A DNA stretch of 64,000 bases. Origin: Nitrospinales bacterium (lineage in GTDB: Bacteria > Nitrospinota > Nitrospinia > Nitrospinales > VA-1). The DNA lies in NCBI GenBank assembly GCA_965262115.1, contig OZ253496.1:384001-448000 (forward strand), given 5' to 3'. The notes below the pieces were generated by a model. That model saw nothing but the letters and a program-made list of their open reading frames with translations, did no database searches and had not been told where the DNA came from. This document shows positions 6,748 through 40,667 of the stretch, piece by piece. How positions within the stretch are numbered: position 1 is the stretch's first letter; each line of letters opens with the position of its first letter. The position numbers and the translations under genes were made by a program.

Positions 6748-6909
6748 CCACTGGGCGGGTCACGCCCGGTGGCTGCTCGCCGCAGGGGCAACTGGCAAAA
6801 GCTCGTCAGGCCGAGACAACTTTTTCTTGCCAAATAACGCTATTGCACACTGGCAGCATGTTATGACCCCTCATTAGTCTTCATGCCCCGAAAGGGGTAC
6901 GCCGAGTGG
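6748..6909. repeat. Interspersed repeat family A, copy 1 (contains element B1)
   Basis: About 100 bp nearly identical to 12681-12780. Confidence 0.85.
6859..6899 (+). mobile_element. Micro-element B, copy 1
   Basis: tgttatga...cttcatgccccgaaaggggta inserted in repeat A. Confidence 0.7.
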
Positions 6910-7023
6910 AAGATTAAAAAAAATTAATTTCATTCTTCTGAAATTTGGACTACATTTTCAAAGTTCGAACAATCTTCGCAGTTCCTCGTGATAATCAACT
7001 CAACTTTGCCAAAGGTTTTTCTG

Positions 7024-8016
7024 ATGGTACAAAAGATCGATGAAATAACGGAACATGTCAATCAGGCCAGCGTATTTATCCCCTCCCTTTTGCATGAGTT
7101 GGAGCAAATCATGGTCGGGCAAAAATATCTGACCGAGCGGTTGATACTGGGACTGCTGACCGGAGAACATGTTCTGGTCGAAGGGGTGCCGGGGCTGGCC
7201 AAGACCACGGCGGTGAAAACCCTGGCCCAATCGGTGAAGGCCGATTTCAAGCGCATCCAGTTCACCCCCGATTTGTTACCAGCCGATTTACTGGGAACCC
7301 AGGTGTACCAGCCCAAAACCGGCGAGTTTGATATTAAAAAAGGACCTCTTTTCGCCAACATCATTCTCGCGGATGAAATCAACCGGGCTCCGGCCAAGGT
7401 TCAAAGCGCCCTGCTCGAAGCCATGCAGGAAAGGCAGATCACCATTGCTGGCACAACTTTCAAGCTCGAAGAACCTTTCATGGTGATTGCCACCCAAAAT
7501 CCTATTGAGCAGGAGGGCACCTATCCTCTTCCCGAAGCCCAGGTGGACCGGTTCATGTTGAAACTCCATATCGATTACCCCACCCAGGAAGAGGAAAAGC
7601 TTATCATGCAACGGATGTCCACCTGCAATAACGCTTATCAGGTTAAGCAGGTGGTGTCGCCTGCGGAAATTTTGCAGGCCCGAAAAGTGTTTGACGAAAT
7701 ATATATCGATGAAAACCTGCAGGACTATATCATCGACCTCGTTGCAGCGACACGCGACCCGGAAAACCATCAATTGTCTTCCCTGAAAGGAATGATCCAG
7801 TTTGGTGCTTCCCCTAGGGCATCCATCTTTTTAAACCGGGCCGCGAAAGCCTATGCCTTTTTGCAACGCCGAGGGTATGTCGTTCCGCATGACATTAAAA
7901 GTATCGGAATGGATGTGCTCAGGCACCGAATCATCCTTACATATGAAGCCGAGGCCGAGAATGTGACGGCGGATGATATTATCAAGAAAATATTCGACAC
8001 CCTGGAAGTTCCCTAA
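7024..8016 (+). CDS. moxR: MoxR-family AAA+ ATPase
   Basis: GVPGLAKT, RIQFTPDLLPAD, ADEINRAPAKVQSALLEAM, ATQNPIEQEGTYPLPEAQ. Confidence 0.95.
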   Translation: MVQKIDEITEHVNQASVFIPSLLHELEQIMVGQKYLTERLILGLLTGEHVLVEGVPGLAKTTAVKTLAQSVKADFKRIQFTPDLLPADLLGTQVYQPKTGEFDIKKGPLFANIILADEINRAPAKVQSALLEAMQERQITIAGTTFKLEEPFMVIATQNPIEQEGTYPLPEAQVDRFMLKLHIDYPTQEEEKLIMQRMSTCNNAYQVKQVVSPAEILQARKVFDEIYIDENLQDYIIDLVAATRDPENHQLSSLKGMIQFGASPRASIFLNRAAKAYAFLQRRGYVVPHDIKSIGMDVLRHRIILTYEAEAENVTADDIIKKIFDTLEVP

Positions 8017-8018
8017 TC

Positions 8019-8966
8019 ATGCTTAAAACCCTGACTCATACAATTCGGGATTGGTTTCAGGAACCAGACCTTGCGCCTGAGCCGGATAAAGACCTGTCCC
8101 CGGAATTATTGCAACGCATCAAAGCCATTCAGGTGAAGACCAATTATCTGGTCAATGACATCATGGCGGGGGAATATGTCTCTGCATTTAAAGGGCGGGG
8201 AATGGAGTTCAGCGAGGTGCGGGAATATCAGCCCGGTGACGATGTCCGGCTGATCGACTGGAACGTGACCGCCAGAATGAATCAACCCTTCATTAAAGAG
8301 TTCAAGGAAGAACGGGAGTTGACCCTCATGCTTCTGGTTGATGTGAGTTCTTCGGGCGGATTCGGCTCAGCCAAGAAACTTAAAAACGAAGTTTCTGCCG
8401 AGATTGCTTCTATTCTCGCTTTCGCCGCCATCAAAAACAACGACAAGATCGGACTGGTCGTGTTCTCGGACAAAATCGAGCGCACGATACCGCCCAAAAA
8501 AGGCAAAGCCCATATCTGGAATATCATACGAACCATTCTGAATTTCCAACCGGAAGGAAAAGGCACAAACCTCTGCCTGCCATTGGAATATCTTTTAAAT
8601 ATCCAGAAACGAAAAACCACCGCTTTTTTGATTTCTGATTTCCAGGATGACGACTATGAGACAACATTAAAACTGGCAAAACAAAAACATGATCTGGTCG
8701 CCATCAGCATCACCGATCCACGCGAGGAAACCATTCCTGATGTCGGCTTGATCCAGCTTGAAGATGCAGAGTCTGGAGAAACCTTGCTGGTGGATACCAG
8801 TGATCAAGAGATGACCGAGCAATACGCCAAACAGTTCCAGGAAAAAATGGGGAAACGAAAAAATTATTTTCATTCCATAGGTATCGACACCATCGAAATT
8901 CAGACAAACCGGTCTTTGACCGAACCCATCATCCGCTATTTTAAAATGCGAGAGAAGAAACATTAA
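8019..8966 (+). CDS. DUF58 / vWA-associated protein
   Basis: GMEFSEVREYQPGDDVRLIDWNVTAR. Confidence 0.92.
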   Translation: MLKTLTHTIRDWFQEPDLAPEPDKDLSPELLQRIKAIQVKTNYLVNDIMAGEYVSAFKGRGMEFSEVREYQPGDDVRLIDWNVTARMNQPFIKEFKEERELTLMLLVDVSSSGGFGSAKKLKNEVSAEIASILAFAAIKNNDKIGLVVFSDKIERTIPPKKGKAHIWNIIRTILNFQPEGKGTNLCLPLEYLLNIQKRKTTAFLISDFQDDDYETTLKLAKQKHDLVAISITDPREETIPDVGLIQLEDAESGETLLVDTSDQEMTEQYAKQFQEKMGKRKNYFHSIGIDTIEIQTNRSLTEPIIRYFKMREKKH

Positions 8967-9433
8967 TGACAAACCAAAATCCTGAAATAATCCCGACCGA
9001 AGGGGTCAGCAAAAAGCTAAAAGCCGTTGTCATAATTCTTACAGTAGCCACCCTTATTGCTTTTGTGGCGTTATTCACCAAGCTTGCAGACAAGCAGAGT
9101 GGCCCAACAAAAATCCGATCGACTATCCAAGAACCCGACCAGTATTTGAGCGAGGAGTATAAAGAGGTTGGAACACGCCTGATGAATTCCGGTTTGAAAG
9201 AACAGGCCATCGACCAGTTCATAAAAGTCTGGGAGATACAAAAAACCGGGAGCGTGGAAAGGGCAAAAGCCGCCCAGGCAGTCAGCGGTTTATATGCAGA
9301 CCTTGGAAATTGCCAGGAAGCCCTTATATGGCTGTTTCGGGCTGAGGTTTCGGATGAAGGCAAAACCCTGCCTTTGCAACCGCTCATCGACTCGTGCCTT
9401 GCAAAAGTCAGGAGTATTCATTCCGGCCGATGA
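8966..9433 (+). CDS. Membrane-anchored TPR-like hypothetical protein
   Basis: N-terminal TM, helical repeats, overlapping stop/start within the operon. Confidence 0.65.
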   Translation: MTNQNPEIIPTEGVSKKLKAVVIILTVATLIAFVALFTKLADKQSGPTKIRSTIQEPDQYLSEEYKEVGTRLMNSGLKEQAIDQFIKVWEIQKTGSVERAKAAQAVSGLYADLGNCQEALIWLFRAEVSDEGKTLPLQPLIDSCLAKVRSIHSGR

Positions 9434-10410
9434 TGAAAGCAACCATTCCGGTAAAATTTGCTGTAGGTTTTTTTCTCTTTCTAATTATTTTATTTTGCTT
9501 GGCCCCATTTTCCATCGCTGGGAAAATTTCAAACCCGGTTTCTGTCACCACCCGAATCACCCCCAGCACTTTCACTCTTGGCGATATCGCGACTTATACC
9601 ATTACCATCCAGCATGACCTGGACATCCACCCTGCCGCTCCCGATATTGAACCGCCAAAAGGTCTGGAGTTTATCGAAAAAGGGAAAAACCCGCCTCAAG
9701 AAATAAACGGACAAACCATCGATGAATACTGGTACAAATTTCGCATCGATGACGTTGGCAAATTGAGCCTCCCTTCCGTCCCGGTATCTTTTAACGCTCC
9801 AGACCAAAAGGAAGCGGGAAAAAATATTCAGGGGACCATTCTGGCCCCTGAAGTGAACCTTGAAGTGCAGTCTCTTCTAAACGTACTGGGAAGCCAGGAA
9901 GAGATTCACGATATCAAACCACTGGAGGACTATCCCCTACCCTGGATGAATTATTTTTGGATAGCTCTGGGAGCGCTCGCCCTTTTCGGATTGCTCTACT
10001 TCTTATGGCGCAAATGGAAGTCACGGCCCACCTCTTTGACCCTTCCTTCACCCACTTCAGCCTTGACGGCGGAACAGTTGGCTTTCAAAGAGCTTGAGGA
10101 ACTCAAAAATAAGGGATGGCTTCAGCTTGGACGGATTCAAGATCATTTTTTTGAGTTGTCTGAAATTTTTCGCAGGTATCTGGAAAACCGTTACCAATTT
10201 CCAGCGCGGGAATGGACCACGGAAGAAATCACGGCGCATTTTAAACATTTTCCCAGCCTCAGCGAAAACCTGAGGCTTCAGGCGCGATCCATCCTGACTC
10301 AAACAGACCGTGTCAAGTTTGCCAAGGTGGAACAAACGGAAGATGAGATGCAACCCATCATCAACTTTATCCGAGAGGCCCGACCCCCTGAAGCAGTAAA
10401 CCAACCATGA
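9430..10410 (+). CDS. Bat-operon membrane protein (DUF4381/BatD-like N-domain)
   Basis: Signal peptide, DIKP + TM, LSEIFRRYLE..TTEE; typical position before batA. Confidence 0.8.
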   Translation: MMKATIPVKFAVGFFLFLIILFCLAPFSIAGKISNPVSVTTRITPSTFTLGDIATYTITIQHDLDIHPAAPDIEPPKGLEFIEKGKNPPQEINGQTIDEYWYKFRIDDVGKLSLPSVPVSFNAPDQKEAGKNIQGTILAPEVNLEVQSLLNVLGSQEEIHDIKPLEDYPLPWMNYFWIALGALALFGLLYFLWRKWKSRPTSLTLPSPTSALTAEQLAFKELEELKNKGWLQLGRIQDHFFELSEIFRRYLENRYQFPAREWTTEEITAHFKHFPSLSENLRLQARSILTQTDRVKFAKVEQTEDEMQPIINFIREARPPEAVNQP

Positions 10411-11405
10411 TTTTTTTCCAGTTTCAAAATCCCTGGCTATTGCTATTCCTGTTGGCACTGCCCCTGCTTGCCTTTCAAGTGAGCAAAGGCCAGCGGACAA
10501 CCGTGCATTTTTCATCCCTCGCTACTCTCAAAGCCCTGCATACAGATCGGGTCGATCTGTATGCAGGGCTACCGTTTATAATCCGTTTTTTAGCGTTGGC
10601 ACTTTTGATCATCGCCCTGGCCCGGCCACAAGAAGGACACAAGAGCACGGAAATTCTTTCAGTCGGGGTCGATATCATGCTGGCCTTGGACACCTCTGGA
10701 AGCATGTGGGCACTGGACTTCATAGAAGAAGAAAATCGCATCACCCGGCTCGCTGTGGTGAAAGGAGTGGTCTCCGAATTCATCGACAACCGGCCCAACG
10801 ACCGCATAGGCATGGTGGTGTTTGGCGAGCAGGCCTACACGCAATGCCCGTTGACCCTCGATCAAGGCATCCTGCAATCATTTTTAAGCAAGCTGGAAAT
10901 TGGCATGGCCGGAGACTCGACAGCCATTGGCTCAGCTATTGGTATCGCCGTGAAGCGGCTCAAGGATCTGGACTCCGAATCCAAAGTCATCATTCTATTG
11001 ACCGATGGCAGGAACAATGCCGGAACGCTGGCCCCGCTCCAAGCCGCCCAGACGGCCAAGACCTTCGGGATAAAAATTCACACCATTGGTGTCGGCACTA
11101 AAGGCAAGGCACCCTTTTTAGTCAACTCTATTTTTGGCCAACGCTATGTCTATCAGGAAGTGGATATCGATGAAACAACACTTCAGGAAATATCAAAAAT
11201 TACCGGCGGCCAATATTTCCGAGCCACCGATCTGGAGTCCCTTAAAAATATTTATAAGCAGATTGATGAAATGGAAAAGTCAGAAGTCAAAGTGATCGAC
11301 CATTCGGAGTACAAGGAGCTGCTCCACTATTTTCTGGTGCCGGGACTGGCGCTGCTTTTAATGGAAATCGGTCTTTCCAATACCCTTTTACGAAGGATCC
11401 CCTAA
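10407..11405 (+). CDS. batA: vWA domain protein BatA
   Basis: ALARPQ, DTSGSM MIDAS, LTDGRNNAG. Confidence 0.88.
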   Translation: MIFFQFQNPWLLLFLLALPLLAFQVSKGQRTTVHFSSLATLKALHTDRVDLYAGLPFIIRFLALALLIIALARPQEGHKSTEILSVGVDIMLALDTSGSMWALDFIEEENRITRLAVVKGVVSEFIDNRPNDRIGMVVFGEQAYTQCPLTLDQGILQSFLSKLEIGMAGDSTAIGSAIGIAVKRLKDLDSESKVIILLTDGRNNAGTLAPLQAAQTAKTFGIKIHTIGVGTKGKAPFLVNSIFGQRYVYQEVDIDETTLQEISKITGGQYFRATDLESLKNIYKQIDEMEKSEVKVIDHSEYKELLHYFLVPGLALLLMEIGLSNTLLRRIP

Positions 11406-11408
11406 ATC

Positions 11409-12416
11409 ATGCGATTTGGCGAGCCCGGTTATTTTTATTTATTGTGGAGCCTGATCCCGTTGATCTTTTTCATGGCATGGGGCATGAAAAAGAAACACCA
11501 ACTCACGCTGAAATTTTGCGGCAATCCTTTACTATCGAAGTTGGTCCATCCCGGAGTGGAAAAACGGCATCACAGCAAAACCGTTTTCATCGTTCTGGCT
11601 ATCCTTTTTCTTATGCTTTCCCTGACTCAACCACGCTGGGGTTATCACTGGGAAGACCTGCACCAACGCGGGGTCGATGTCATCGTCGCGCTGGATGTTT
11701 CAAGCAGCATGCTGGCGGAAGATATTAAACCCAATCGCCTTGAGAGGGCCAAACGAAAAATCTCCGATCTTCTGGATATGATGGAGGGAGATCGAATCGG
11801 GCTGGTTGCCTTTGCCGGTACTTCATTCGTCCAGTGTCCCCTGACTCTCGACTATGGTGCCGCCAGAATATTTCTTTCCGCCATTGATACGCAATTGATT
11901 CCCGTACAGGGAACTGACCTAGGAAATGCCATCAAGACTTCCGTCAAAGCGTTTCGCACTCAGGAGAAAAAATCCAAGGCCCTGATCTTAATCACTGACG
12001 GAGAGGATCAAACAGGAAAGGCTCTCTCAGCCGCAAAGTCGGCAGGCGATCAGGGCGTTAAAATTTATACGATCGGAATCGGCGGGGAATTAGGTGCCCC
12101 CCTGCCTGACCTTTCCGGCAATGGTGGATTCAGAAAAAATCAACAGGGAGAAGTCATTCTCTCAAAACTGGACGAGACCACATTGCAGCAGATTGCCCTA
12201 GAGACAGGCGGAAGCTATGTCCGCTCCGTCACCGGAGACATTGACTTAAAAACCATTTATCAAGACCAGATCAAAAAGCATATCGAGAAAAAAGAATTGA
12301 AATCAGAGCGTCGCAAAATCTGGCAGGAGCGGTTCCAGTGGTTCATTTTTATAGCACTCATTTTCCTGGTCATAGAAACCAGTTTATCTGAAAGAAAGCC
12401 CTTGAAAAATTCATAA
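11409..12416 (+). CDS. batB: vWA domain protein BatB
   Basis: DVSSSMLAEDIKPNRLERAK, ITDGED. Confidence 0.88.
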   Translation: MRFGEPGYFYLLWSLIPLIFFMAWGMKKKHQLTLKFCGNPLLSKLVHPGVEKRHHSKTVFIVLAILFLMLSLTQPRWGYHWEDLHQRGVDVIVALDVSSSMLAEDIKPNRLERAKRKISDLLDMMEGDRIGLVAFAGTSFVQCPLTLDYGAARIFLSAIDTQLIPVQGTDLGNAIKTSVKAFRTQEKKSKALILITDGEDQTGKALSAAKSAGDQGVKIYTIGIGGELGAPLPDLSGNGGFRKNQQGEVILSKLDETTLQQIALETGGSYVRSVTGDIDLKTIYQDQIKKHIEKKELKSERRKIWQERFQWFIFIALIFLVIETSLSERKPLKNS

Positions 12417-12475
12417 AATTAGCCTGCACTCCCCTGCCAGATTTGGTAAAATATCACTAAGCGGCCCCTTAACAG

Positions 12476-12643
12476 GAGACCTTTGCGTAAGTCGATAAAG
12501 CAGAAAAGCGAGATGCTTCGACATACCCCTCCGGGGCAAGAAGGCAAAGGTCGAGTATCACTAGCTCAGCATGACAATAAAAGGCTGTTTTGTCATTCTG
12601 AGGAACAACGTGACGAAGAATCTCGGGGTTATGCAAAGGTTTC
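12476..12643 (+). mobile_element. MITE C, copy 1
   Basis: TIRs GAGACCTTTGCGTAA / TTATGCAAAGGTTTC; flanking direct repeat CCTTAACAG (12467-12475, 12644-12652). Confidence 0.85.
12524..12562 (-). mobile_element. Micro-element B, copy 2
   Basis: Removal restores GAGATGCTTCGACAAGCTCAGCATGACA. Confidence 0.72.
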
Positions 12644-12658
12644 CCTTAACAGGGAAGG

Positions 12659-12780
12659 CCACTGGGCAAGTGATCATTGCGCCGAGAAAACTTTTTTCTT
12701 GCCAAATAACGCTATTGCACACTGGCAGCATGTTATGACCCCTCATTAGTCTTCATGCCCCGAAGGGGTACGCCGAGTGG
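12659..12780. repeat. Repeat family A, copy 2 (contains B3)
   Basis: Near-identical to 6810-6909; ends CCACTGGGC...GCCGAGTGG. Confidence 0.85.
12731..12770 (+). mobile_element. Micro-element B, copy 3
   Basis: Same sequence and site as B1. Confidence 0.7.
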
Positions 12781-12863
12781 CTTGACAAACTGAGTTCGCG
12801 ATTTTATTTGATACAGAAGCCGACATAAATTGCTACGTTTAAACATACGAAAGGAAAAAAATA

Positions 12864-13565
12864 ATGGAAAGTTTTTCTAGACCCATGAGCGTGGATGCCA
12901 TTGCCGCAGAACAACAGCGGTTCATGGTGCGTGTCTATAACTGGATGACTGCCGGACTGGCCATAACCGGTTTCATGGCTTTTTATATTTCCAGCAGCCC
13001 GGCAATAATGAATATCATTTTCGGCAATGCCATTATACCGATTGTCCTCATCATTGCACAGATAGGACTTGTTTTCTGGCTGGCGTCAAGAGTCATGCAA
13101 ATGAGTGCAAGCCAGGCGACCGGTGTTTTCATGCTCTATGCGGGCCTGACGGGTATTACTTTTTCCGCAATATTCGCGGTTTATACAGCGTCATCCATTA
13201 CCTCCACATTTTTGGTCACAGCGGGCACCTTTGGCGCCATGAGCCTGTACGGTTATACGACCAAAAAGGACCTGACTTCTTGGGGAAGTTTTCTCTTTAT
13301 GGGATTGATCGGAATCATCATTGCTTCGGTGGTGAATATGTTCATGCAAAGCTCCATGATGCACACAATCATCACCTATGCCGGAGTGCTGATCTTTGTC
13401 GGGCTGACTGCCTATGACACACAGAAGATCAAAGAGATGAATATTCTCGGCAATGAAGGCACCGATGAAGACACAAAAGAAGCCATCTCAGGGGCATTAA
13501 CTCTATATTTAGACTTCATCAACCTGTTCCTCATGCTCCTCAGGCTTATGGGAGACCGAAGGTAA
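12864..13565 (+). CDS. Bax inhibitor-1/YccA family membrane protein
   Basis: 7 TM; LTAYDTQKIK, ALTLYLDFINLF. Confidence 0.93.
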   Translation: MESFSRPMSVDAIAAEQQRFMVRVYNWMTAGLAITGFMAFYISSSPAIMNIIFGNAIIPIVLIIAQIGLVFWLASRVMQMSASQATGVFMLYAGLTGITFSAIFAVYTASSITSTFLVTAGTFGAMSLYGYTTKKDLTSWGSFLFMGLIGIIIASVVNMFMQSSMMHTIITYAGVLIFVGLTAYDTQKIKEMNILGNEGTDEDTKEAISGALTLYLDFINLFLMLLRLMGDRR

Positions 13566-13637
13566 GCCTATTATTTCAACTTGAAAAACTCCCGGCTCCC
13601 TCGGGCCGGGAGCATCTATTCTCCAGTTTCTAAAATT

Positions 13638-14396: not shown

Positions 14397-14398
14397 AA

Positions 14399-16201: not shown

Positions 16202-16941
16202 AACACGCTTTAGCGCTCTTTTTATTTCTTGTGCTGACGCTCTCTACCAGCCGGCCGACAGAAGCCTCTAACTATTTAAATGAGGTCATTCGCGCCAACG
16301 GCTTGTACGCTGAAAAACATTATGCCGGGTCTGCACAGGCTTATGAGTCTTTAATCGACAAAGGAGTGCAGAACGGATATCTGTATTACAACCTGGGCAA
16401 TGCCTATATCAGGATGGGAAAAACAGGGTCCGCTGTTTTAAATTATGTCCGTGCCCGAAAATGGATTCCGCGCGATGAGAATCTGGAAGCCAATTTAAAA
16501 TTTGCCATTCAACAAACCCGGGACAAAATAGAGCTCCCGCCTCTTGGAACGCTGAATGTCCTGCTGTTCTGGGTCAACGATTTAAATTTTAACGAACTGA
16601 TGGTTTTCACCATTGGCTTGAATTTAATTTTCTGGGTCAACCTGGCGCTGTGGATGTATTTTCCTTCCCTGAAAGTCGTTCACAACGCCCTTCTAGGTTT
16701 TCTTTTACTGTCATTTGTTTCAATTGGAGTTAAAATTAACAATGAATCCGATTTAAAACTGGGAGTGGTTCTGACTGAAAATGTCGAAGTGAAGTCCGGG
16801 CGCGCTGGAGATGCGGTGACTCTATTCCAGTTACACGAAGGCGCCCTGGTTACCGTCACCGGTAAAAGGGACAACTGGCTGGAAGTTCGCCTCAACGAGG
16901 AGCAAAAAGGCTGGGTTCCACAAAACTCCCTGGGAACCTGA
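16198..16941 (+). CDS. batE: TPR + SH3 protein, BatE-like
   Basis: YYNLGNAY, two TMs, LFQLHEG...GWV SH3b domain. Confidence 0.85.
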   Translation: MKHALALFLFLVLTLSTSRPTEASNYLNEVIRANGLYAEKHYAGSAQAYESLIDKGVQNGYLYYNLGNAYIRMGKTGSAVLNYVRARKWIPRDENLEANLKFAIQQTRDKIELPPLGTLNVLLFWVNDLNFNELMVFTIGLNLIFWVNLALWMYFPSLKVVHNALLGFLLLSFVSIGVKINNESDLKLGVVLTENVEVKSGRAGDAVTLFQLHEGALVTVTGKRDNWLEVRLNEEQKGWVPQNSLGT

Positions 16942-17208
16942 ACCCACGACATTCCGAGCAGTGAGCATGATAATCGCAAGGTCTCGGGTCTTATCATCTG
17001 ATCGGAGGGCTTTACAAACATCCATTCCATTCATCCGCAACATGTTCACGTCCGGAATGACCAGGTCCGGCAAACTGTCCCGTATTTTTTCGAGGGCCAC
17101 CTCACCATCAGGAGCAGTATCTATCTGGTAGCCTTCTTTGCGGAGTTTTAATTCCAACGCCGCTAAAAGTTCCTCATAATCATCGACTAAAAGGATTTGG
17201 TGAGCCAT
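16942..17208 (-). pseudogene. Truncated response-regulator receiver domain
   Basis: ILLVDD..PDLVIPDVNMLRMNG..IIMLTAR, then runs into antisense batE; conserved beta5 Lys absent. Confidence 0.7.
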
Positions 17209-17221
17209 CTTTTTTCCTGAT

Positions 17222-20096: not shown

Positions 20097-20097
20097 C

Positions 20098-26770: not shown

Positions 26771-26849
26771 CTACCAGGCGTAGGGCCAGCGTGCAATATC
26801 TTTATCTTGCAAACAAATGTTTTCTCGGCACAAGGAGTCCTTGCCCAGT
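26771..26849 (+). repeat. Repeat family A, copy 4
   Basis: GGCGTAGGGCCAG..TGCAAT..TTCTCGGC..TTGCCCAGT right after stop. Confidence 0.7.
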
Positions 26850-26887
26850 CAGCCCCCTGCTAAGGAGACCTTTGCATAACCCCGGAT

Positions 26888-26906
26888 TACCCCTGCGGGG
26901 CACGAA
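26888..26906 (-). mobile_element. Micro-element B, copy 4 (truncated)
   Basis: TACCCCTGCGGGGCACGAA at the same site in C as B9. Confidence 0.6.
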
Positions 26907-27185
26907 TTGATCTTCCCCTCTCATGAGGGGAGGCAAGGCGTAGCCGCGGAGGGGTGTGGATTATTTTTACGGAATTCATAATCCAACCCTCCCCTGGCCC
27001 CTCCCTATGAAGGGAGGGGAAATTTCTGCTTCCGCATTTTCTACTTACGCAAAGGTCTCCCTCGGAGGGGAGAGGAACTTAATAGTTGAGGAGGACATCC
27101 ACCTACGGAAAAATATAACATGATCTTCCCCTGAATTGGTGGACACATCGAAAAGTGTGGATAATACACTTTTGGAGGTGTTTTT

Positions 27186-27520
27186 ATGGGAACCAAACGC
27201 AGGAGTTTCAGTAAAGAATTCAAGTTAGAAGCGGTTCGATTGGTTATTGAAGTAGGCGATAGCATTGCCCGGGTGTCCCGGGATCTGGGAATCCGTTCTG
27301 CCCTTCTGGGTCGCTGGAAACAGGAGTATGAGGAGGATCAGGGGAATGCGTTTCCCGGCAAAGGACAGCTTAAGCCGGGAGATGAGTTGCAGCAGTTGCG
27401 GCGAGAAAACGCTCGCCTTCGTATGGAGCGGGACATATTAAAAAAGGCGGCAGTTATCTTTGTGATGTCCTCTTCATTTGTCTTCATGCCACGAAGGGGT
27501 ACTCGAAGGGTTCCCAATGA
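27186..27520 (+). pseudogene. IS3 OrfA (HTH), 3' end disrupted by a 41-bp insertion
   Basis: RRSFSKEFKLEAV...ERDILKKAA; removing 27461-27501 restores IFSKGSQ* overlapping the orfB ATG. Confidence 0.85.
27461..27501 (+). mobile_element. Micro-element B, copy 5 (in IS3 frameshift window)
   Basis: tgtgatgtcc...cttcatgccacgaaggggta, no TSD. Confidence 0.8.
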
Positions 27521-28380
27521 GATATCGGTTTATACGGGATCATCGAGAAGCATTTCCGGTAAGCCCGATGTGCCGGGTTCTGGAAGTGGGACGAAGTGGG
27601 TTCTATGCCTGGCTGAGCCGCCCCGAGAGCCTGAGGAGCCGTGAGAAGCAGCGATGGGTTGATGAGATCAAAACCGTTTATAAGAAGAGTCGCCAGACTT
27701 ATGGCAGTCCCAGAATTCATGAGGACTTGAAAGACAAGGGATATGCCATTGGCAGGCATCGTATTGCCTGTCTTATGCGCGAGCATGGAATCGTTGCCAA
27801 GCACAAAAGAAAGTTTAGGGTGACAACCGATTCCAAACATAATCACCCGGTGGCAAAAAACAAACTGCAACGGCGGTTTAATGTTGCTGAGCCCGGTCAA
27901 TGCTGGGTTTCGGATATCACCTATATCCCGACTCAAGAGGGCTGGTTATACCTTGCGGTGACGCTGGATTTATTCCACCGTAAAGTTATTGGTTGGGCCA
28001 TGGATCGTTGGATAACCCGTTGGTTGGTAATGAGAGCTTTAAATATGGCAATGAAGAACGGCGGCATGAAACCGGGATTGATTCACCATTCTGACCGGGG
28101 GGTTCAATATGCCTGCAACGATTTTCAAGCCTTGCTCAATGTTCATGGGATAGAGTGCAGTATGAGCCGGAAGGGCGATTGCTGGGATAACGCCGTGGCG
28201 GAGAGTTTTTTCCATACTCTCAAAGTGGAACTCATTCATAACCGGAACTACAAAACCCGTCAGCAAGCAAAGAAGGATATTTTTGAATATATCGAAGTGT
28301 TTTATAATCGGCAACGCCGTCACTAATATCTCGGCTATCTCAGCCCTGCCGAATTCGAGAAACAGGCCTATGCCTCTTAA
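27517..28380 (+). pseudogene. IS3 OrfB DDE transposase with late nonsense codon
   Basis: [36 protein letters not shown] with TAA at 28324-28326. Confidence 0.9.
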
Positions 28381-28470
28381 CTAACTGTCCACTAAAACAG
28401 GGGAAGATCATCTCGCTTTTCTGCTTTATAGACTTACGCAAAGGTCTCCCTGCTAAGGGGCGGAGTAACT

Positions 28471-28532
28471 CCGCTGGTAAATTGCAATGGCCTACTGGCG
28501 AATTATCTCAGCACAAAGAGTCCTTGCCCAGT
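28471..28532 (+). repeat. Repeat family A, copy 5 (partial)
   Basis: TTGCAAT..TCTCAGCACAAAGAGTCCTTGCCCAGT, similar to copy 4. Confidence 0.6.
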
Positions 28533-28596
28533 TACCTCCCCTCTTATTCCTGTGATATGATGGCGCGCTATTATCGTATTTCACTTAGGGCTTAAA

Positions 28597-29538: not shown

Positions 29539-29544
29539 ACTCTA

Positions 29545-32817: not shown

Positions 32818-32844
32818 CATTAGCCTTCATGCCCGGAACGGGTA
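32818..32844 (+). mobile_element. Micro-element B, copy 6 (partial)
   Basis: cattagccttcatgcccggaacgggta. Confidence 0.6.
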
Positions 32845-32933
32845 CTTCGTAGAATGGGGAGCAAACCACCCCCTCTCAAAAACAGTGAGTTTTATTAAGC
32901 CGAGACAACTCTTGCCAGCCAATAAAGGCTATT

Positions 32934-32972
32934 TACCCCTGCGGGGCACGAAGTTTAAGGAAGAATATTACG
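32934..32972 (-). mobile_element. Micro-element B, copy 7
   Basis: Removal restores the A consensus GCCAGTAGC|AATAGC. Confidence 0.72.
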
Positions 32973-32998
32973 GCTACTGGCCCCACGCCGAGTGGCGC

Positions 32999-33649: not shown

Positions 33650-33795
33650 GAGTATCCTCGCAGGCCCACTGTTTTTGCCCTGAAAAGCAATTCTTATTAG
33701 TAAAAAAGCGTTGATTTTGCTAGTATAAGAGCTTTTAAAAAACCCATCCCCCCACAAGCGGTTAGGGTGAACCTTTAAACCCGGATTTTAAGAAA

Positions 33796-34284
33796 ATGCA
33801 GCATACCATTTCTGTGTTATTGAACAACCGTTTCGGTGTTTTGTCTCGCGTGTCAGGTCTTTTCAGTAGCCGTGGTTTCAATATAGAAAGCCTGAATGTC
33901 GCAGAAACTTCCGATCCAACAGTTTCCCGCATGACCATAGTTACCATCGGTGATAATGCCAAGATTGAGCAGGTCACCAAACAACTTAACAAACTCGTTG
34001 ATGTAATAAAGGTCATTGACCTGACCGAGGAAAGTTTTGTTGATCGGGAATTATTGCTGATCAAGATGAACGCGGAAGTCCGGGTCAGGGAAGAGATCCT
34101 CATAATCGTGGATCTGTTTCGGGCCAAAGTTGTCGATGTGAGCCCCAGCACCTACACCATTGAGATCACCGGCGACGAAGGAAAACTAACTGGCTTTCTG
34201 GATATGTTGAGTCCTTTGGGAATCAAAGAAATCGTCCGGTCTGGAAGAATTGCTATCGGTCGGGGAAACAAATCGATCAATTAA
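33796..34284 (+). CDS. ilvH: Acetolactate synthase small subunit
   Basis: GVLSRVSGLFS.RGFNIESL, KQLNKLVDV. Confidence 0.95.
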   Translation: MQHTISVLLNNRFGVLSRVSGLFSSRGFNIESLNVAETSDPTVSRMTIVTIGDNAKIEQVTKQLNKLVDVIKVIDLTEESFVDRELLLIKMNAEVRVREEILIIVDLFRAKVVDVSPSTYTIEITGDEGKLTGFLDMLSPLGIKEIVRSGRIAIGRGNKSIN

Positions 34285-34311
34285 TTTTGCACTAAGATAA
34301 GGAGAACCGTT

Positions 34312-35313
34312 TTGTCTAAGATTTTTTATAACAAAGATGCGGACATCAAAATCTTAAAGAAGAAAACCATTGCCATCATTGGTTACGGCAGCCAGGGGCA
34401 CGCCCATGCCAGAAACCTCCACGATAGTGGAATGAAAGTGATCGTTGGCCTGAGAAAAGGTAGCGCTTTCTGGAAGAGAGCCCAAAAGGATGGCCTGAAT
34501 GTCATGACCGTCGCCGAGGCCACTAAAAAAGCCGATATCATGATGATCCTGATTCCCGATGACAAACAAAAAGCCATGTATGAAAAAGATATTGAGCCTA
34601 ACTTAACAAAAGGTATGTCTCTGGCGTGGGGACATGGATTCAATATCCACTTTGGACAAATTGTTCCGCCGAAAGATGTCGATGTATTCATGATCGCCCC
34701 AAAAGGTCCTGGTCATCTGGTCAGGAGAACCTTTGAGCAGGGCGCAGGCGTTCCCTGCCTGATGGCGGTTCACCAGAACGTTACCAAAAATGCGAGAAAG
34801 ATAGCCCTCGCCTATGCCAAGGGCATCGGCGGGACCCGTGCAGGTGTTCTGGAAACTGATTTCAGGGAAGAAACCGAAACCGACCTGTTTGGAGAACAGG
34901 CCGTATTGTGCGGAGGTGTTTCCGAATTGATCCGCGCCGGTTACGACACTCTGGTCGATGCCGGATACAATCCGGATCTTGCTTATTTTGAATGCCTCCA
35001 TGAACTAAAACTGATTGTCGACCTTATCTACGAAGGTGGTATCGGCAATATGCGTTATTCCATCAGCACCACCGCCGCCTATGGCGACGTGACCCGCGGA
35101 CCACGAATCATCACTCAGGAAACCCGTGCGGAAATGAAGCGGATTCTGGGCGAGATTCAGAGCGGAGCCTTCGCCAAAGAGTTTATTCTGGAAAACCTGG
35201 CCAACCGCCCACTGTTTAATGCACGACTGGCACAGGATAAAAAACATCGTATCGAGCAGGTCGGAGAAAAGCTCAGGAAAATGATGCCTTTCGTTGGCAA
35301 GAAGGTGCAGTAG
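34312..35313 (+). CDS. ilvC: Ketol-acid reductoisomerase
   Basis: [27 protein letters not shown]. Confidence 0.97.
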
Positions 35314-35319
35314 AAACCC

Positions 35320-35952
35320 ATGCACATTCCTATTGCTAAAGAGGGGTACATGTTCATCCTTCCCCTCGCTGTTTTAACGGGTGTTTTCTGGGCTTTGTCC
35401 TGGTTGTGGGCCGCCGGACTTTTTGGTGGACTCTTCCTCTTCGTCACCTGGTTTTTTCGTGACCCTGAAAGAACTATTCCCGAAGACCATAATGCCATCG
35501 TTTCACCGGGGGATGGCAGGATCGTCGAAATTGTGCCAGAAAAGGACCCGCTACTTGAGAAAGACGGCTATACACGAATCAGTGTTTTCCTGAATGTGTT
35601 TAACGTTCATGTCAATCGGGTACCCATCGCCGGGAAAATTCAAGCCTATCGCTATAACAAAGGAAAGTTTTTCAACGCCGCCAGCCACAAGGCTTCTATG
35701 GATAACGAACAAAGCGCTATCCTATTGAATAATGGTCATGTTACAATTTTAGTGAAGCAAATCGCCGGATTGATCGCCCGTAGAATTGTATGCTGGGCAA
35801 AAGAGGGCGATGAGTATCAACGCGGACAACGCTACGGCTTAATCCGTTTCGGCTCACGCATGGATGTTTTTGTGCCCGAAGGCACTGACATTAAAGTCAC
35901 AGTTGGCGATATTGTCAGCGGTGGAAGCTCCGTCATTGGATATTTAAAGTAG
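35320..35952 (+). CDS. psd: Phosphatidylserine decarboxylase
   Basis: FFRDP, NVHVNR, IRFGSR. Confidence 0.93.
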   Translation: MHIPIAKEGYMFILPLAVLTGVFWALSWLWAAGLFGGLFLFVTWFFRDPERTIPEDHNAIVSPGDGRIVEIVPEKDPLLEKDGYTRISVFLNVFNVHVNRVPIAGKIQAYRYNKGKFFNAASHKASMDNEQSAILLNNGHVTILVKQIAGLIARRIVCWAKEGDEYQRGQRYGLIRFGSRMDVFVPEGTDIKVTVGDIVSGGSSVIGYLK

Positions 35953-35959
35953 GAAAGGC

Positions 35960-36703
35960 ATGGAACCTAAAAAAGGCATTCATATCCTCCCCAGTTTGTT
36001 CACCACGGGAAATGTATTCTGTGGATTCTACGCCTTTGTCGCGGTACTGAATGAGCAGTTTTATTACGCCGCCTGGGCCATCGCGGTAGGAATGATTTTT
36101 GACGGACTCGATGGCCGCATCGCCCGGCTGACTAAAACCACCAGCGCTTTCGGCGAACAATACGATTCTTTGGCAGACATCATCACCTTTGGCATGGCCC
36201 CTGCCTTCCTTGCCTACTCATGGGTATTAAAACCATTCGGTCGGTTGGGTTGGATGGCAGCTTTCCTGTTTCTGCTTTGTGCCGCTCTAAGACTGGCCCG
36301 GTTCAATGTGACCAAACCAGAAATTCGCAGTCATCATTTCATCGGCTTGCCAAGTCCGGCGGCAGCGGTGGTGATCGCATCTATCGTTATTGCTTTTGAA
36401 GACCTGTTTGCCACACGCATGAATCCGTTCATCATGGTGATGGTGGTTTATACTCTGGCGTTTCTTATGGTCAGCAATATTAAATACCCCGCCTTCAAAC
36501 AGTTTGACTTTAAAAAACGGGTGGTGTTTCCCCGTTTCCTGTTCGTGATTTTATTCATTTATGTTCTGGCAACCATACCGCGGGTTGCATTGTTCATTCT
36601 TGGTATCAGCTACGCCGTTATGGGCCCGATTAGCTTATTGTTAACAAATAGAAAACTGGCGGCGGAGTCCAATGAAACTTCTCCTCCTGTTAACAACCAT
36701 TAG
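35960..36703 (+). CDS. pssA: CDP-diacylglycerol-serine O-phosphatidyltransferase
   Basis: DGLDGRIAR..G...DSLAD, RLARFN. Confidence 0.93.
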   Translation: MEPKKGIHILPSLFTTGNVFCGFYAFVAVLNEQFYYAAWAIAVGMIFDGLDGRIARLTKTTSAFGEQYDSLADIITFGMAPAFLAYSWVLKPFGRLGWMAAFLFLLCAALRLARFNVTKPEIRSHHFIGLPSPAAAVVIASIVIAFEDLFATRMNPFIMVMVVYTLAFLMVSNIKYPAFKQFDFKKRVVFPRFLFVILFIYVLATIPRVALFILGISYAVMGPISLLLTNRKLAAESNETSPPVNNH

Positions 36704-36704
36704 T

Positions 36705-36780
36705 CCACTGGCGTGGAGCCAGTTGCAATCACTTTATCTGGCTAGCAAAGAGTTTTGGCGGCCAATAAGCTCTTGCTAGT
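36705..36780 (+). repeat. Repeat family A, copy 8
   Basis: CCACTGGCGTGGAGCCAGTTGCAAT..TTATCTGGC right after pssA stop. Confidence 0.7.
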
Positions 36781-36808
36781 TCCCTCTCTCGAGAGTGAGG
36801 ATTTGTAG

Positions 36809-37705
36809 ATGTCATGGATAGATAAAATCAAAGCCGGGATCGGCGGAAAAAAAACCGCCAAGAACGAAGATCTCTGGGCCGAGTGCAAAAAATGCAAGGG
36901 GCAGATCTATATTGCCGAACTGGAAACCAACTTGAAGGTCTGCCCCCACTGCGATTGCCATTTTCGTCTGGAAACCCGCCAACGTATCCATCAACTCATA
37001 GACCATGAATCGTTTAAAGAACACGATCAGAGTCTGACCGCCTCTGATCCGTTAAAATTCAAAGACACAAAAAAATATAAGGACCGTATCAAATCATCAG
37101 CTAAAAAAGGCCTTTCCAGCGATGCGGTGATCACCGGATCTGGAACTATTGAAGGTCTACCCATCGAACTCTGCGTCTTCGACTTCAGTTTCATGGGAGG
37201 AAGCATGGGTTCGGTAGTGGGAGAAAAAATCACCCGCGCCATCGAACGCGCCATTGAAAATAAATCAGCCCTGATTATTGCAAGCTCTTCCGGCGGCGCA
37301 AGAATGCAAGAGGGCATTTTTTCTCTTATGCAGATGGCTAAAACTTCTTCGGCTCTCAGCAAGCTGAGCAGCCAGAAAATTCCTTATATCTCCATCTTGA
37401 CAGACCCCACCATGGGCGGTGTCTCGGCCAGTTTTTCCATGTTGGGGGATATCATCCTCGCCGAACCGGGCGCACTGATCGGGTTTGCCGGACCGCGTGT
37501 CATCGAACAAACCATCAAACAGAAACTCCCTGAAGGATTCCAAACCGCCGAGTTTCTACTGGACCACGGTCTCATCGATAACGTCGTCCATCGTAAAGAC
37601 CTGAAATCCAGTCTCGCACTATTGCTCAAGATGCTGAAAAACAACCCCGCCGAAGAGTATGAAGAACCCACTCTCACTAAACCCCATGAATTCCTCGGCG
37701 CCTAG
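36809..37705 (+). CDS. accD: Acetyl-CoA carboxylase carboxyltransferase beta
   Basis: C4 zinc finger, GGSMGSVVGEK, SGGARMQE, FAGPRVIEQT. Confidence 0.97.
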   Translation: MSWIDKIKAGIGGKKTAKNEDLWAECKKCKGQIYIAELETNLKVCPHCDCHFRLETRQRIHQLIDHESFKEHDQSLTASDPLKFKDTKKYKDRIKSSAKKGLSSDAVITGSGTIEGLPIELCVFDFSFMGGSMGSVVGEKITRAIERAIENKSALIIASSSGGARMQEGIFSLMQMAKTSSALSKLSSQKIPYISILTDPTMGGVSASFSMLGDIILAEPGALIGFAGPRVIEQTIKQKLPEGFQTAEFLLDHGLIDNVVHRKDLKSSLALLLKMLKNNPAEEYEEPTLTKPHEFLGA

Positions 37706-37760
37706 CTACTAGCCGTAGGGAATGGCTTTTATTGGCTGACAAATAGTCATCTCGGCTTAA
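37706..37760 (+). repeat. Repeat family A, copy 9 (degenerate)
   Basis: TTTATTGGCTGACAAA..TCTCGGCTTAAT, as in A7. Confidence 0.55.
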
Positions 37761-37767
37761 TACAGCC

Positions 37768-37920
37768 TTACTGAAAAGCAGGGGTCGCATCGTAGTCAGC
37801 AAGTAATCTGGTGATTTCGTTTTGGAAGGTCACAAATGGCCGGGTACCGCTGATGAGCATTCCAGTCACGGAGTTATCGGTGGTGTAACCCAATACAAAA
37901 GCCGGGGTACCCCTTCCTGC
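37768..37920 (-). pseudogene. DsbA/thioredoxin-fold C-terminal remnant
   Basis: GTPAFVLG..ISGTRPFVTFQNEITRLL* with no start or CxxC. Confidence 0.65.
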
Positions 37921-37928
37921 GTTCGCGG

Positions 37929-38888
37929 TTAGCAGCCGAGGCTTTTGATGGTATCTTCGATCGACATGGCGATACAGGTGAAGATGGGGGTATCCTCTTT
38001 CACATACCGGCTTCCTTCCGTTTCTCGCAACTCCTGAACCAGGTCTAGGAAATCGTCCGGAGAATCCGATTCGAAAGCCACCACGAACTCATAGTCATCG
38101 ATGCCAAAACTGTAGGTCGTGTTCAATTTGACGGTGGGATATTTGTTGCCAATATAAATATGCTCGTCCATGATCCCCTGACGGGTGAACTGAGTCAGCA
38201 GATACCACTCGCGCGTCTTGACGAAAGGATAGATGAAAAGATATTTCGCCTTGCCCGGAATGATATGCGTACGGTCTTCTTCATGCTCCGGATTGATGAA
38301 GTCCATATACATCGATCGCTTGGTCATGGAAAGATAGCTGTACTGAACATTCAAATATTTCCCCAATCCGGTCTGCAATATCCGGGTGGTCATTTTCTGG
38401 AACTCTTCCATGCTGTAGCAGATGCGCCATATCATGATATCGACATCACCACGAATTCCGACCATGGAATAACACAGTAGAATCATGTCTGAACTGTTGT
38501 CATATTCCTCAAGAATATCGATGAACTCCTTCACACCTTTATCGCGCTCTTCCTGAGGCAATCTGCGAAAAGCAGGGTCGAGCTTGTAAAACGTGAAACT
38601 AACGTATTGACGTTGGACGGGTGGTTCACCACCATTAGCTTTCTGTGCTTCTTCTCGCTTTTTGCGAGCGGCTTCCATGGCTTCGCCTTCGCGTTCCTGA
38701 CGGGCACGCGAAACCACTCCATCATCCACCACCGCGATGCTCTTGTCCTTGGCATACTGCTCGATACCGCGCACCACACTCTTGCGGACAAAAAACGGAA
38801 CATTCTTCATGCGGGTCTGGGCCTCATCGGTCCATTCCAGCTCCAACTCAGGCATGAATTCTTCTAATTCTTTATCGTCAATACTCAT
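37929..38888 (-). CDS. PCP_red domain fused to chlorite-dismutase-family (ChdC/HemQ-like) domain
   Basis: WTDEA..RMKNVPFFVRK N-domain; YPFVK, WY.L, proximal His in MDEH, SFGIDD. Confidence 0.88.
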   Translation of the reverse strand: MSIDDKELEEFMPELELEWTDEAQTRMKNVPFFVRKSVVRGIEQYAKDKSIAVVDDGVVSRARQEREGEAMEAARKKREEAQKANGGEPPVQRQYVSFTFYKLDPAFRRLPQEERDKGVKEFIDILEEYDNSSDMILLCYSMVGIRGDVDIMIWRICYSMEEFQKMTTRILQTGLGKYLNVQYSYLSMTKRSMYMDFINPEHEEDRTHIIPGKAKYLFIYPFVKTREWYLLTQFTRQGIMDEHIYIGNKYPTVKLNTTYSFGIDDYEFVVAFESDSPDDFLDLVQELRETEGSRYVKEDTPIFTCIAMSIEDTIKSLGC

Positions 38889-39067
38889 AGTTTGTTCTCA
38901 ATATAAATGGGTTTCGGAAGCCGACATTATATCTAAAACTCCATGAAAATAAAAGCCCTATTCCCCACCCCTCAAGGTGGCACTATTTCAAGGTTGCACC
39001 TAGCGAAAGCGCTTTTTAAGGCCTAAGTTAGTAGTGAGTAAATATCAGGATAAATGAGGGATTTTAT

Positions 39068-40303
39068 ATGGACTCTACCACTACCTCTTCGAGTGCACAA
39101 AGCTTTATCGACCTCGAAAATGAGTTTGGGGCAAACAACTACAGGCCTCTTGATGTCGTATTAGCCCGGGGCCAGGGCGTCTGGGTCTGGGATGTGGAAG
39201 GTAAAAGATACATGGATATGCTGGCATCGTATTCCGCCCTCAACCAGGGGCACTGCCATCCCCGCATCCTGAATGCCCTCACCGAACAAGCCAAAAAGCT
39301 TACCCTGGTTTCCCGGGCTTTCCGTAACGATCAGTTGGGTCCCTTCTATATAGAAATCTGCGAGATGACCAACTCACACAGCGTTTTGCCGATGAACAGC
39401 GGTGCCGAGGCCGTCGAAACCGCCCTCAAAGCCGCCCGCAAGTGGGGCTATAGGATTAAAGAAATCCCCGACGACATGGCCGAGATCATCGTCTGCGCCA
39501 ATAATTTTCATGGCCGGACCACCACCATCGTCGGCTTCAGCTCCGAACATCAATACCGGGACGGGTTCGGCCCCTTCGCGCCCGGATTCATCACCATCCC
39601 CTTCGGGGATGCGGAAGCCCTGGAATGGGCCATCACCCCCAATACTGTAGCCTTTCTGGTGGAACCCATTCAGGGCGAAGGCGGTATCATCATCCCACCC
39701 CACGGTTATTTGAAAAAAGTACGCGAAATCTGTGACCGCAATAACGTTTTGCTCATCCTCGACGAGATCCAGACAGTGCTCGGCAGAACGGGCAAACTTT
39801 TCGCCGAAGAACACGAGGGCATCGAGTCCGACCTTACACTGGTAGGCAAAGCGCTCTCGGGTGGAGTCTACCACGTCTCCGCCGTGCTCTCTAATAAGGA
39901 GGCCCTGGCCGTTTTCGAGCCCGGGGACCACGGCAGCACCTTCGGCGGCAACCCCCTCGCGTGCGCCGTGGCACGCGAAGCATTGGCAGTCATAGAAGAT
40001 GAAAATCTCGTTGAAAGATCCCTATTTATGGGGCATTACCTTAAGGAATCTCTCAGGAATATTATCTCACCTTACGTCAAAGAAGTGCGCGGCATGGGAC
40101 TTCTGATCGGGGTCGAACTGAAGAAATCCGCTGGCGGTGCAAGGAAGTTCTGCGAAGCGCTGATGGAGAAAGGCATCCTCTGCAAAGAGACGCAGAAACA
40201 CGTGATCCGTTTCGCCCCACCACTCACCATCACCAAAGAAGAACTCGACTGGGCCCTCGAACGCATCGAGAGTGTATTGACCCCCATCAATAAACACCGA
40301 TAA
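39068..40303 (+). CDS. rocD: Ornithine aminotransferase
   Basis: [46 protein letters not shown]. Confidence 0.93.
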
Positions 40304-40378
40304 CAAAGAATAAATCCCTCCCTTGGTAAGGAGACCTTTGCGTAAGTCAAAAAATCGAAGAATCGAGATGCTTCGACA

Positions 40379-40417
40379 TACCCCTCCGGGGCAAGAAAGC
40401 AATGGTTAAATATCACT
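40379..40417 (-). mobile_element. Micro-element B, copy 8
   Basis: Same site as B2. Confidence 0.72.
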
Positions 40418-40475
40418 AGCTCAGCATGACAATACTGGGCCATTTTGTCATTCTGAAGAGCGTACGCGATGAAGA

Positions 40476-40514
40476 CGTGATATTTTTCCCTAACCTTCGT
40501 GCCCCGGAGGGGTA
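40476..40514 (+). mobile_element. Micro-element B, copy 9
   Basis: Absent from C1; removal restores GAAGA|ATCTC. Confidence 0.78.
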
Positions 40515-40627
40515 ATCTCGGGTTATGCAAAGCTCTCCTTGTCAGGGGAGGAGCTTTTTAAATTATCCCAATTCGTACTTGTGGTCAATCATCCCGGCCC
40601 ATGCTTGAGGTAAATCACCCCAGCCCT

Positions 40628-40667
40628 TGTGATATTCCTTCACCAGTTCTCATGCCCGGTACGGGTA
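40628..40667 (+). mobile_element. Micro-element B, copy 10
   Basis: tgtgatattcc...catgcccggtacgggta inside a CCCT..CTTTTAAAAGAAGGG palindrome. Confidence 0.7.

Follow-up and report, generated by a model that had tools for sequence, protein, structure and literature searches.

A mobile hairpin-ended micro-element of 39-41 bases in marine nitrite-oxidising bacteria that often changes host bases upstream of its insertion

The window analysed here, a stretch of 64,000 nucleotides (positions 384,001-448,000 of the single 2.68-Mb contig OZ253496.1, assembly GCA_965262115.1) from a Nitrospinales bacterium whose genome we call G000, carries an IS3-family element, 138-bp inverted-repeat elements and, mostly nested in these and other repeats, ten copies of a hairpin-ended micro-element. 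A preliminary description, made from the letters of the window, had proposed a minimal non-autonomous mobile element with neither terminal inverted repeats (TIR) nor target-site duplications (TSD); all ten copies lie where it had placed them, four of them on the minus strand (Table 1), and the proposal was supported by empty alleles in a related genome (G013) and in run X9. The micro-element is real and mobile, and its insertion is exact in length but often inexact in letter, two to five upstream host bases being changed. Missed earlier were three features: the first base is paired, the upstream flank is rewritten, and an IS110 element targets the micro-element.

Full copies are 39-41 bases long. 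Read on its own strand, the micro-element begins with N-GT(G/T)AT, continues with a pyrimidine-rich stretch of varying length and TTC-N', and closes with a six-pair stem that has a G-T wobble and a GNA loop, the hairpin reaching the last base; the bases 5' of the hairpin are TTC-N, with no GTAG/GTGG or CGTC tag at its foot. The covariation noticed earlier in the stem was borne out and gained a third type, the pair beside the loop being C-G in 141, G-C in 76 and T-A in 15 of 257 in this genome. As had been claimed, every loop reads GNA or GNNA on the micro-element's own strand, and no copy has the complementary loop. The first base, N, can form a Watson-Crick pair with N', the base that precedes the hairpin on its 5' side: this holds for 119 of 132 contexts in G000, where 69 were expected, and overall for 318 of 363 distinct copies, where 169 were expected, and 32 of the 45 exceptions are C..A or T..G, one transition away from a pair. 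Because empty sites lack N, this base is part of the micro-element, and because it pairs with N', the joined ends make a single 8-bp stem, in which N and the next G lengthen the hairpin and the junction lies inside, as seen in all 8 of the circularly permuted copies shown; head-to-tail tandems, containing such end junctions, are common. Triloops of the d(GNA) type are very stable in DNA (PMC3201870). Based on the GNA loop, the covarying stem and the joined-end helix, we surmise that the micro-element is most likely handled as single-stranded DNA, presumably by way of a joined-end (circular or tandem) intermediate. Both marks of DDE-type miniature inverted-repeat transposable elements, namely terminal inverted repeats and target duplication, are absent.

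A profile of the micro-element, scanned over the genome as had been proposed, gave 381 matches at a threshold of at least 14 bits in the 2.68-Mb genome vs. none in the reversed genome that served as control, and a strict right-end motif gave 223 matches vs. 0-1 in each of five block shuffles. Although open reading frames (ORFs) of at least 200 residues make up 68% of G000, none of its 214 full copies lies deep inside one.

Movement was evident from filled and empty sites. The genomes G000 and G013, which are ~93-95% identical, differ by five clean lone indels of 39-41 bp over the first 1.44 Mb compared; over 2.24 Mb, the other genome was scored as having an empty site for 20 of 214 G000 copies and for 12 of 248 G013 copies, and 22 and 23 copies, respectively, were present in both; the remainder were unanchored or unalignable, and several of the 32 empty calls are weak alignments. 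A 32-kb contig of run X9 spans sites 6859 and 12731 of the window, both empty; its alleles are those of G013, and its independence of that genome is uncertain. The orthologous comparison suggested earlier thus yielded empty alleles in relatives and no duplication. Net length change was zero in 123 of the 132 flank contexts that have an empty look-alike. The further claim, that deleting a copy cleanly restores the host, held for the normal IS3 orfA end, for GAAGA/ATCTC and for TTCGACA/AGCTCAG but not for the host called repeat A, which reads CCCA when empty and AGCA when filled at 6859; the empty allele of 12731 likewise lacks the AG. As both copies are of this AG-rewritten kind, clean restoration of repeat A was wrong at two bases. 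Copies also nest in other copies, through up to three peeling rounds; the nested copy may follow base 9, precede CTTC, occupy the loop or sit at the end, and nesting on the opposite strand occurs as well. One identical copy was found in two unrelated flanks, from which it follows that the ends must be set by an enzyme. That the copies might be fixed parts of larger repeats and never move alone, a refutation the preliminary description had itself named, would accord with the many copies riding in IS3 and the 138-bp element, but is refuted by the lone indels between genomes and is at odds with 108-120 site families, repeated nesting and copies on viral contigs; we give it next to no weight. Riding in IS3 and inverted-repeat hosts, and copying between similar host repeats, would be additional ways in which copies have spread. 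In G013, near 53,000 (peeled coordinates), one copy is interrupted between TTA and AAC by ~490 bases that resemble a portion of an ABC-transporter gene.

The host bases just upstream of the micro-element were frequently not those of the empty site. Where a copy sits in the loop of another copy, CC at -4/-3 has become AG in 20 of 27 filled loops vs. 0 of 627 empty loops; these 20 insertions comprise 14 inner types in 19 outer contexts, with the outer copy's own N' at -7 kept. In the CCCA/CGCC host, AG was present in 9 of 11 filled sites, and the ten variants most frequent in 111 empty sites did not include it. Cross-genome comparison (572 queries giving 21 rows, from which five tandem artefacts and five gapped rows were dropped) left 11 pairs, in which positions -6 to -1 differed at 21 of 66 bases and +1 to +6 at 7 of 66 (background 9.7%, p=0.005). 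Over all, the -5 to -2 bases were unlike any empty allele in 53 of 130 events, the products being mostly GTAG (12), GAGC (11) and CAGC. In addition, near-identical copies share their proximal flanks (2.63 and 2.28 of 5 on the two sides vs. 1.69 and 1.45 permuted), beyond all 500 permutations. Most simply, the micro-element would take a few bases of its flank along when it moves, and the rewritten bases would come from the donor.

The earlier statement that target sites share no bases gave way to a loose bias. Among 108 site families, 59% have G at -5 and 81% have G or C at -2; in 39 of 120 site families an AG begins at -4 or -3 (background 6% per position), and +1 to +3 are rich in A. Part of this bias may be carried-over flank and not true preference. 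The commonest 4-mer at -4 to -1 occurs in 7 of the 120 families, and there is no fixed target tetra- or pentanucleotide of the kind by which IS200/IS605 elements are known; a GT(A/G)G tetramer lies just upstream, outside the micro-element, in 10 of the 120 (p=4e-6). Targeting of structure instead of sequence, also proposed earlier, found weak support: the advantage in folding of reconstructed empty sites over shuffles is slight (-4.3 vs. -3.1 kcal/mol), the site takes no constant position relative to a hairpin, although many are a few bases 3' of one, and a loose sequence bias is present. The main hosts are SRM/CGTC-type repeats within the 138-bp inverted-repeat element, IS3 and other copies. 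Two candidate explanations were rejected: pairing of a fixed-register internal DNA guide with the target (116 register tests, maximum z=2.7, and weighted covariation without a Watson-Crick pattern) and an origin from CRISPR repeats, the arrays in G000 and G013 having unrelated repeats. These arrays are of three repeat types (G000:C1:765604-766272; G013 313360, 695263 and 1701082), and cas1/cas2/cas4 and cas9-region genes are common to both genomes.

We postulate that the micro-element is a non-autonomous element of 39-41 bases that moves as a single strand with its ends in one helix, a few former-flank bases replacing target bases, and we put the probability of this reading at roughly 50%. It builds on observed features, i.e., the fixed ends, the covarying hairpin, the first-base pairing, the empty alleles, the flank rewriting and the similar copies in similar flanks. 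The micro-element would be taken as a single DNA strand, its first base pairing beside the terminal hairpin and bringing both ends into one helix; a trans-acting enzyme would recognise the hairpin and the paired ends, nick, and rejoin the strand. The 3' end would be joined exactly, and the 5' end would be resolved by short pairing of the carried flank with the target, the carried bases replacing the matching host bases. That the chemistry is HUH-like nicking and joining in trans is, on its own, a tentative proposal that falls short of even odds; we consider it somewhat unlikely that it lies outside Y1, Y2, reverse transcriptase, DDE and IS110 altogether, with a self-closed 40-base strand whose carried flank tail chooses the target and is written into the host, a chemistry that may also underlie SDR-like micro-elements of other phyla.

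Several results weigh against the single-strand reading: 1) the 11 cross-genome pairs represent few host families and cannot be counted as independent; 2) the -1 base is as in the empty allele in 38 of the 53 rewritten events, where plain carry-over of a donor tail predicts otherwise; 3) in a comparison of paralogues, right-flank changes were raised (14 of 94 at +5, 8 at +4 and 7 at +2, with a control of ~1%), so that the polarity of rewriting is not absolute; 4) Y1_Tnp (E<=0.001) had no match in G000, G013 or G007, three of the four genomes richest in copies; 5) no HUH, relaxase or Rep domain appeared in a Pfam scan of 263 of 401 basic, non-membrane ORFs common to G000 and 78% of G013 (the rows of the ribosomal operon, those orthologous to the window and the last 101 were omitted, and the list did not extend to acidic, membrane or long proteins); 6) an HUH-motif search gave 7 matches, none convincing; 7) the longer autonomous form sharing both ends and enclosing an enzyme gene, which the preliminary description had suggested looking for, was found neither in G000 nor in 1.44 Mb of G013 nor at the fetched loci (orphan right ends); and 8) copies in G000 have no replication-strand bias, unlike IS200/IS605 elements. 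A skew was seen in one G013 replichore, for which local arrays may account, and genes with copies on both sides are ordinary genes or IS3. Y2_Tnp had no match in G000, with control genomes equally silent, and an NCBIfam scan of 57 ORFs lacking a Pfam family returned nothing relevant.

The preliminary description had pointed to HUH enzymes (IS200/IS605 TnpA, TnpA-REP and IS91); the Y1 searches do not support the first two. A conventional Y1 HUH enzyme (RAYT or IS200 TnpA) that moved the micro-element and has since been lost from the richest genomes, or only visits them, would fit the hairpin, the lack of TSD and the upstream GT(A/G)G of 10 of 120 families, which recalls the REP guide (PMC6006769), and Y1 genes do occur in 15 of 61 relatives, including G019. 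That tetramer, though, lies outside the micro-element and at least 25 bases from the hairpin, Y1 is absent from G000, G013 and G007 even though the first two differ at many sites, it occurs in G009, a genome devoid of copies, and no copy lies near any of the 12 Y1 loci retrieved (one weak Y1_Tnp match is an Lcl-like gene). We regard this explanation as improbable. Less probable still is transcription of the micro-element followed by target-primed reverse transcription at a nick, a route expected to leave the 3' end exact and the 5' flank converted. It accords with the polarity seen in the flank changes, and an RNA route has reportedly been suggested for the SDR repeats of Nostoc, but RVT_1 had no match in G007, G019 or G018, the match in G000 being a broken eukaryote-like fragment in the first 100 kb only, and a GNA loop with any middle base suits DNA and not an RNA tetraloop. 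The Rfam search proposed earlier matched nothing in the window except one tRNA. The first 100 kb of G000 (G000:C1:1-100000), with GC down to 0.38, many tandem repeats, a broken LINE-like reverse transcriptase (L001) and no micro-element copy, is probably eukaryotic DNA joined to the assembly. Among tyrosine recombinases, only a pair of XerC/D size is common to five genomes. We also rejected DUF559 as the mover, for it has no match in G007 (80 copies) and is present in many genomes without the micro-element; the DUF559 genes themselves (G000:C1:377367-377768 and four more; G013 16563-16958) lie between ~24-bp inverted hairpin repeats that give their borders and look cassette-like, with five near-full cassette copies in G000.

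The main rival, which may be likened to homing or oligonucleotide recombination and which we consider unlikely, holds that an Ssn-type small GIY-YIG (or similar) nickase frees the micro-element with a few flank bases and that host annealing or repair copies it into sites of short match. On single-stranded DNA, the cut of SsnA falls in the variable flank, a few bases 5' of its hairpin (PMC11893778); small Ssn-like GIY-YIG genes turned up in each of the five copy-rich genomes searched, and the SRM repeats of these genes serve as main hosts; both flanks track the subtype and both can change, and site 12731 looks converted from 6859 with long flanks. Yet these genes are bracketed by SRM-type repeats and not by the micro-element, nearby copies of which lie inside those repeats or further away, and they are also found in genomes without it; insertion into SRM repeats is inside the 3' arm and not upstream, where SsnA cuts; and repair alone leaves both the exact ends in unrelated flanks and the first-base pair unexplained. 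The small GIY-YIG genes with inverted SRM-type flanks encode 95-116 residues (L333 in G000, and L335, L336, L340, L330 and L249), and one 95-residue form is 98-99% identical in G013, G019 and G007.

In G000 the commonest multi-copy protein is an IS110 recombinase (DEDD domain PF01548, 24 matches) whose elements land in the micro-element: each of the 26 IS110 right ends abuts its stem and, with one exception nested in another IS110 copy, each left end abuts the other arm (25 of 26). The core is two bases within the loop. The left non-coding end of IS110 has two internal loops when folded, their unpaired arms matching the target and the donor sites, and bridge RNAs have internal loops with target and donor guides (PMC11208160). 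In 2 of the 25 IS110 copies read, both target guides have changed together, the target being the GCA-loop instead of the GAA-loop form, and the single IS110 copy of G013 (L280), which also abuts a micro-element, differs at two bases of the right guide. As judged from these sequences, the guides follow the micro-element loop, with a putative bridge-RNA action. Six IS3 copies contain a micro-element with IS110 inside; the IS110 element is ~1.2 kb long, with examples in G000:C1 at 120394-121341 (-), 1213045-1213992 (+) and, of the variant form, 1834691 and 1931302. An IS110 recombinase that recognises the micro-element so specifically, and whose family inserts without inverted repeats (PMC11208160), might also be thought to move it; this idea is very improbable and is largely refuted by distribution, since IS110 has no match in G019, G022, G018, G004 or G031, which have 25 to 115 copies, and several rich genomes thus do without it. 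Moreover, no core dinucleotide is repeated at the micro-element ends, and the IS110 site is in the loop and not at the ends. Given that no Y1, reverse transcriptase or IS110 tracks the micro-element, the mover was not found among the families and genes searched, to which this absence is confined.

Within the window, independent events are fewer than the ten copies, which had been assigned to about seven sites: 6859 and 12731 share a 76-bp unit and are probably one event copied with its flanks, as their sequences suggest (the empty alleles of the two sites in G013 differ from one another), and 27461 rides in IS3, whose sites were filled in 13 of 15 cases, 2 unresolved and 0 empty. The two partial copies reported earlier are present and prove to be truncated remnants abutting IS3-type ends. 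Most window copies do lie inside another repeat, as had been stated of every copy; elsewhere, L087, L255 and L261 have no evident host repeat. Loose ends lie at window 27494 in runs X2 and X4, and the X2 and X5 contigs that skip the copy at 40476 are possibly other copies of its host repeat. A contig of run X4 joins 6820 to 12693, omitting the MoxR/vWA operon between the two 76-bp direct repeats, which is either a real deletion or an assembly collapse. Window 26823-28505 (IS3 and nested repeats) is absent as a block in X5 and X7 contigs, with a 4-base overlap at the join. The 138-bp inverted-repeat element, with its SRM/CGTC-type hairpins, has flanking direct repeats of ~10 bases or longer and is polymorphic between G000 and G013; further sites are window 40329-40540 and G000:C1 254324 and 1107192.

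Table 1. Micro-element copies and associated features of the window (window positions; AG and CC refer to bases upstream of the insertion)
Feature	Position	Strand	Observation
Rewritten flank, AG at -4/-3 vs. CC in empty allele	6855..6856	+	Empty allele in G013 and run X9
76-bp unit	6821..6896	+	99% identical to 12693-12768 (sequence comparison)
Full copy, GAAA loop	6859..6899	+	In CCCA/CGCC-type host repeat; empty allele in G013 and 32-kb contig of run X9
Host 138-bp inverted-repeat element (SRM/CGTC-type hairpins within) with 39-bp copy	12465..12641		Absent as block in run X9 (177-base skip)
Full copy, A-type (first base A pairs with T), GGA loop	12524..12562	-	
Full copy, GAA loop	12731..12770	+	Upstream AG at 12727-12728 missing from empty allele
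3' remnant (hairpin end)	26888..26906	-	Cut by IS3-end-like repeat
IS3-family element with one copy at orfA end	27120..28411	+	
Full copy inside IS3	27461..27501	+	In 6 other IS3 copies of the genome IS110 occupies its loop (junction corresponds to window 27494)
3' remnant	32818..32844	+	Fused to IS3 right-end sequence
Full copy, C-type	32934..32972	-	Filled in G019, empty in G013 and run X5, flanks altered
Full copy, A-type	40379..40417	-	First hairpin of host inverted-repeat element
Full copy, C-type	40476..40514	+	At GAAGA/ATCTC junction; exact 39-base skip in X2 and X5 contigs
Full copy, CCCG/CGGG stem, GTA loop	40628..40667	+	

The complete two-ended pattern was present in 23 of 74 genomes of the phylum, all within one family of marine nitrite-oxidising bacteria (four genera), and the right-end motif in 20 of 22 other genomes of the same genus; in the public genome collection, matches were mainly in Nitrospina, Nitrospinaceae or Nitrospinota records. 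Among 18 pattern matches were full copies on three viral contigs, and phages could transport the micro-element between hosts. The viral-contig loci with copies are L253 (with Mu-like genes by inspection), L254-256, L260, L261, L269 and L262, one 50-kb contig having six copies. In a genome of another family (G055, L132-L134), four copies with the hairpin end have another left end and all lie in one host repeat.

No published description of the micro-element was found in the literature searched, most subscription papers lying outside that search. The closest known kind is the SDR (small dispersed repeat) group of Nostoc. Elhai and colleagues (2008, Genome Res 18:1484) are said to have described SDR1-8 as very small dispersed units of 21-27 bases with precise insertion, nesting and compensatory changes. 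The micro-element resembles these repeats in being a very small dispersed unit with precise insertion and self-nesting, and differs in being longer (39-41 vs. 21-27 bases), in belonging to another phylum and in having no HIP1 target; we know of no report of first-base pairing, flank rewriting or IS110 targeting for the Nostoc SDRs. Mention of the Nostoc SDR5 is made in PMC4390886. The features that define REP-RAYT and IS200/IS605 systems were not found here. Like REPs and REPINs (PMC3733652, PMC6006769, PMC3116915), the micro-element is a short extragenic hairpin with hundreds of copies, non-autonomous and an IS110 target, but it has no GTAG/CGTC foot tag, carries an unpaired 5' part of 24-26 bases, occurs as a single unit rather than an inverted pair, and was found flanking no RAYT (Y1) gene. 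With the 'peel and paste' of IS200/IS605 (PMC6006769) it has in common the lack of TIR and TSD, a hairpin near the end and a probable single-strand route with joined ends; its differences are one hairpin ending at the terminal base, no fixed target tetramer, changed upstream bases, no Y1 enzyme in G000, G013 and G007, and no replication-strand bias in G000. The NTS/SRM repeats of the Ssn nucleases (PMC11893778) are, like it, dispersed hairpin repeats and, as is probable for it, are handled as single strands; its insertions are mainly in the SRM-type repeats of G000, and the micro-element itself has no SRM tag by inspection and does not bracket nuclease genes. The IS110 elements that target REPs (IS621, PMC11208160; ISPpu10, bioRxiv 10.64898/2026.03.19.712850) share with the one found here the DEDD domain, a core of two bases and guides, left and right, that match a hairpin repeat, except that the target here is itself mobile, giving a nesting of IS3, micro-element and IS110, and that two copies have both guides changed.

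How repeats of less than 50 bases move without a known transposase has been an open question since the SDRs and the CGTC-type REPs, and CGTC repeats seem to lack a dedicated transposase (PMC3733652). The micro-element family offers two testable handles on this question, the base pair that joins the ends and the footprint of changed bases upstream of new insertions. If its enzyme were found, it would be one that inserts a 40-base cargo with no length scar and with the adjacent bases edited, and if the carried-tail chemistry is true, this would be a natural reaction for editing a few bases. A natural IS110 whose guides follow a mobile hairpin would, in turn, represent bridge-RNA retargeting in the wild, together with a three-level nesting of mobile DNA.

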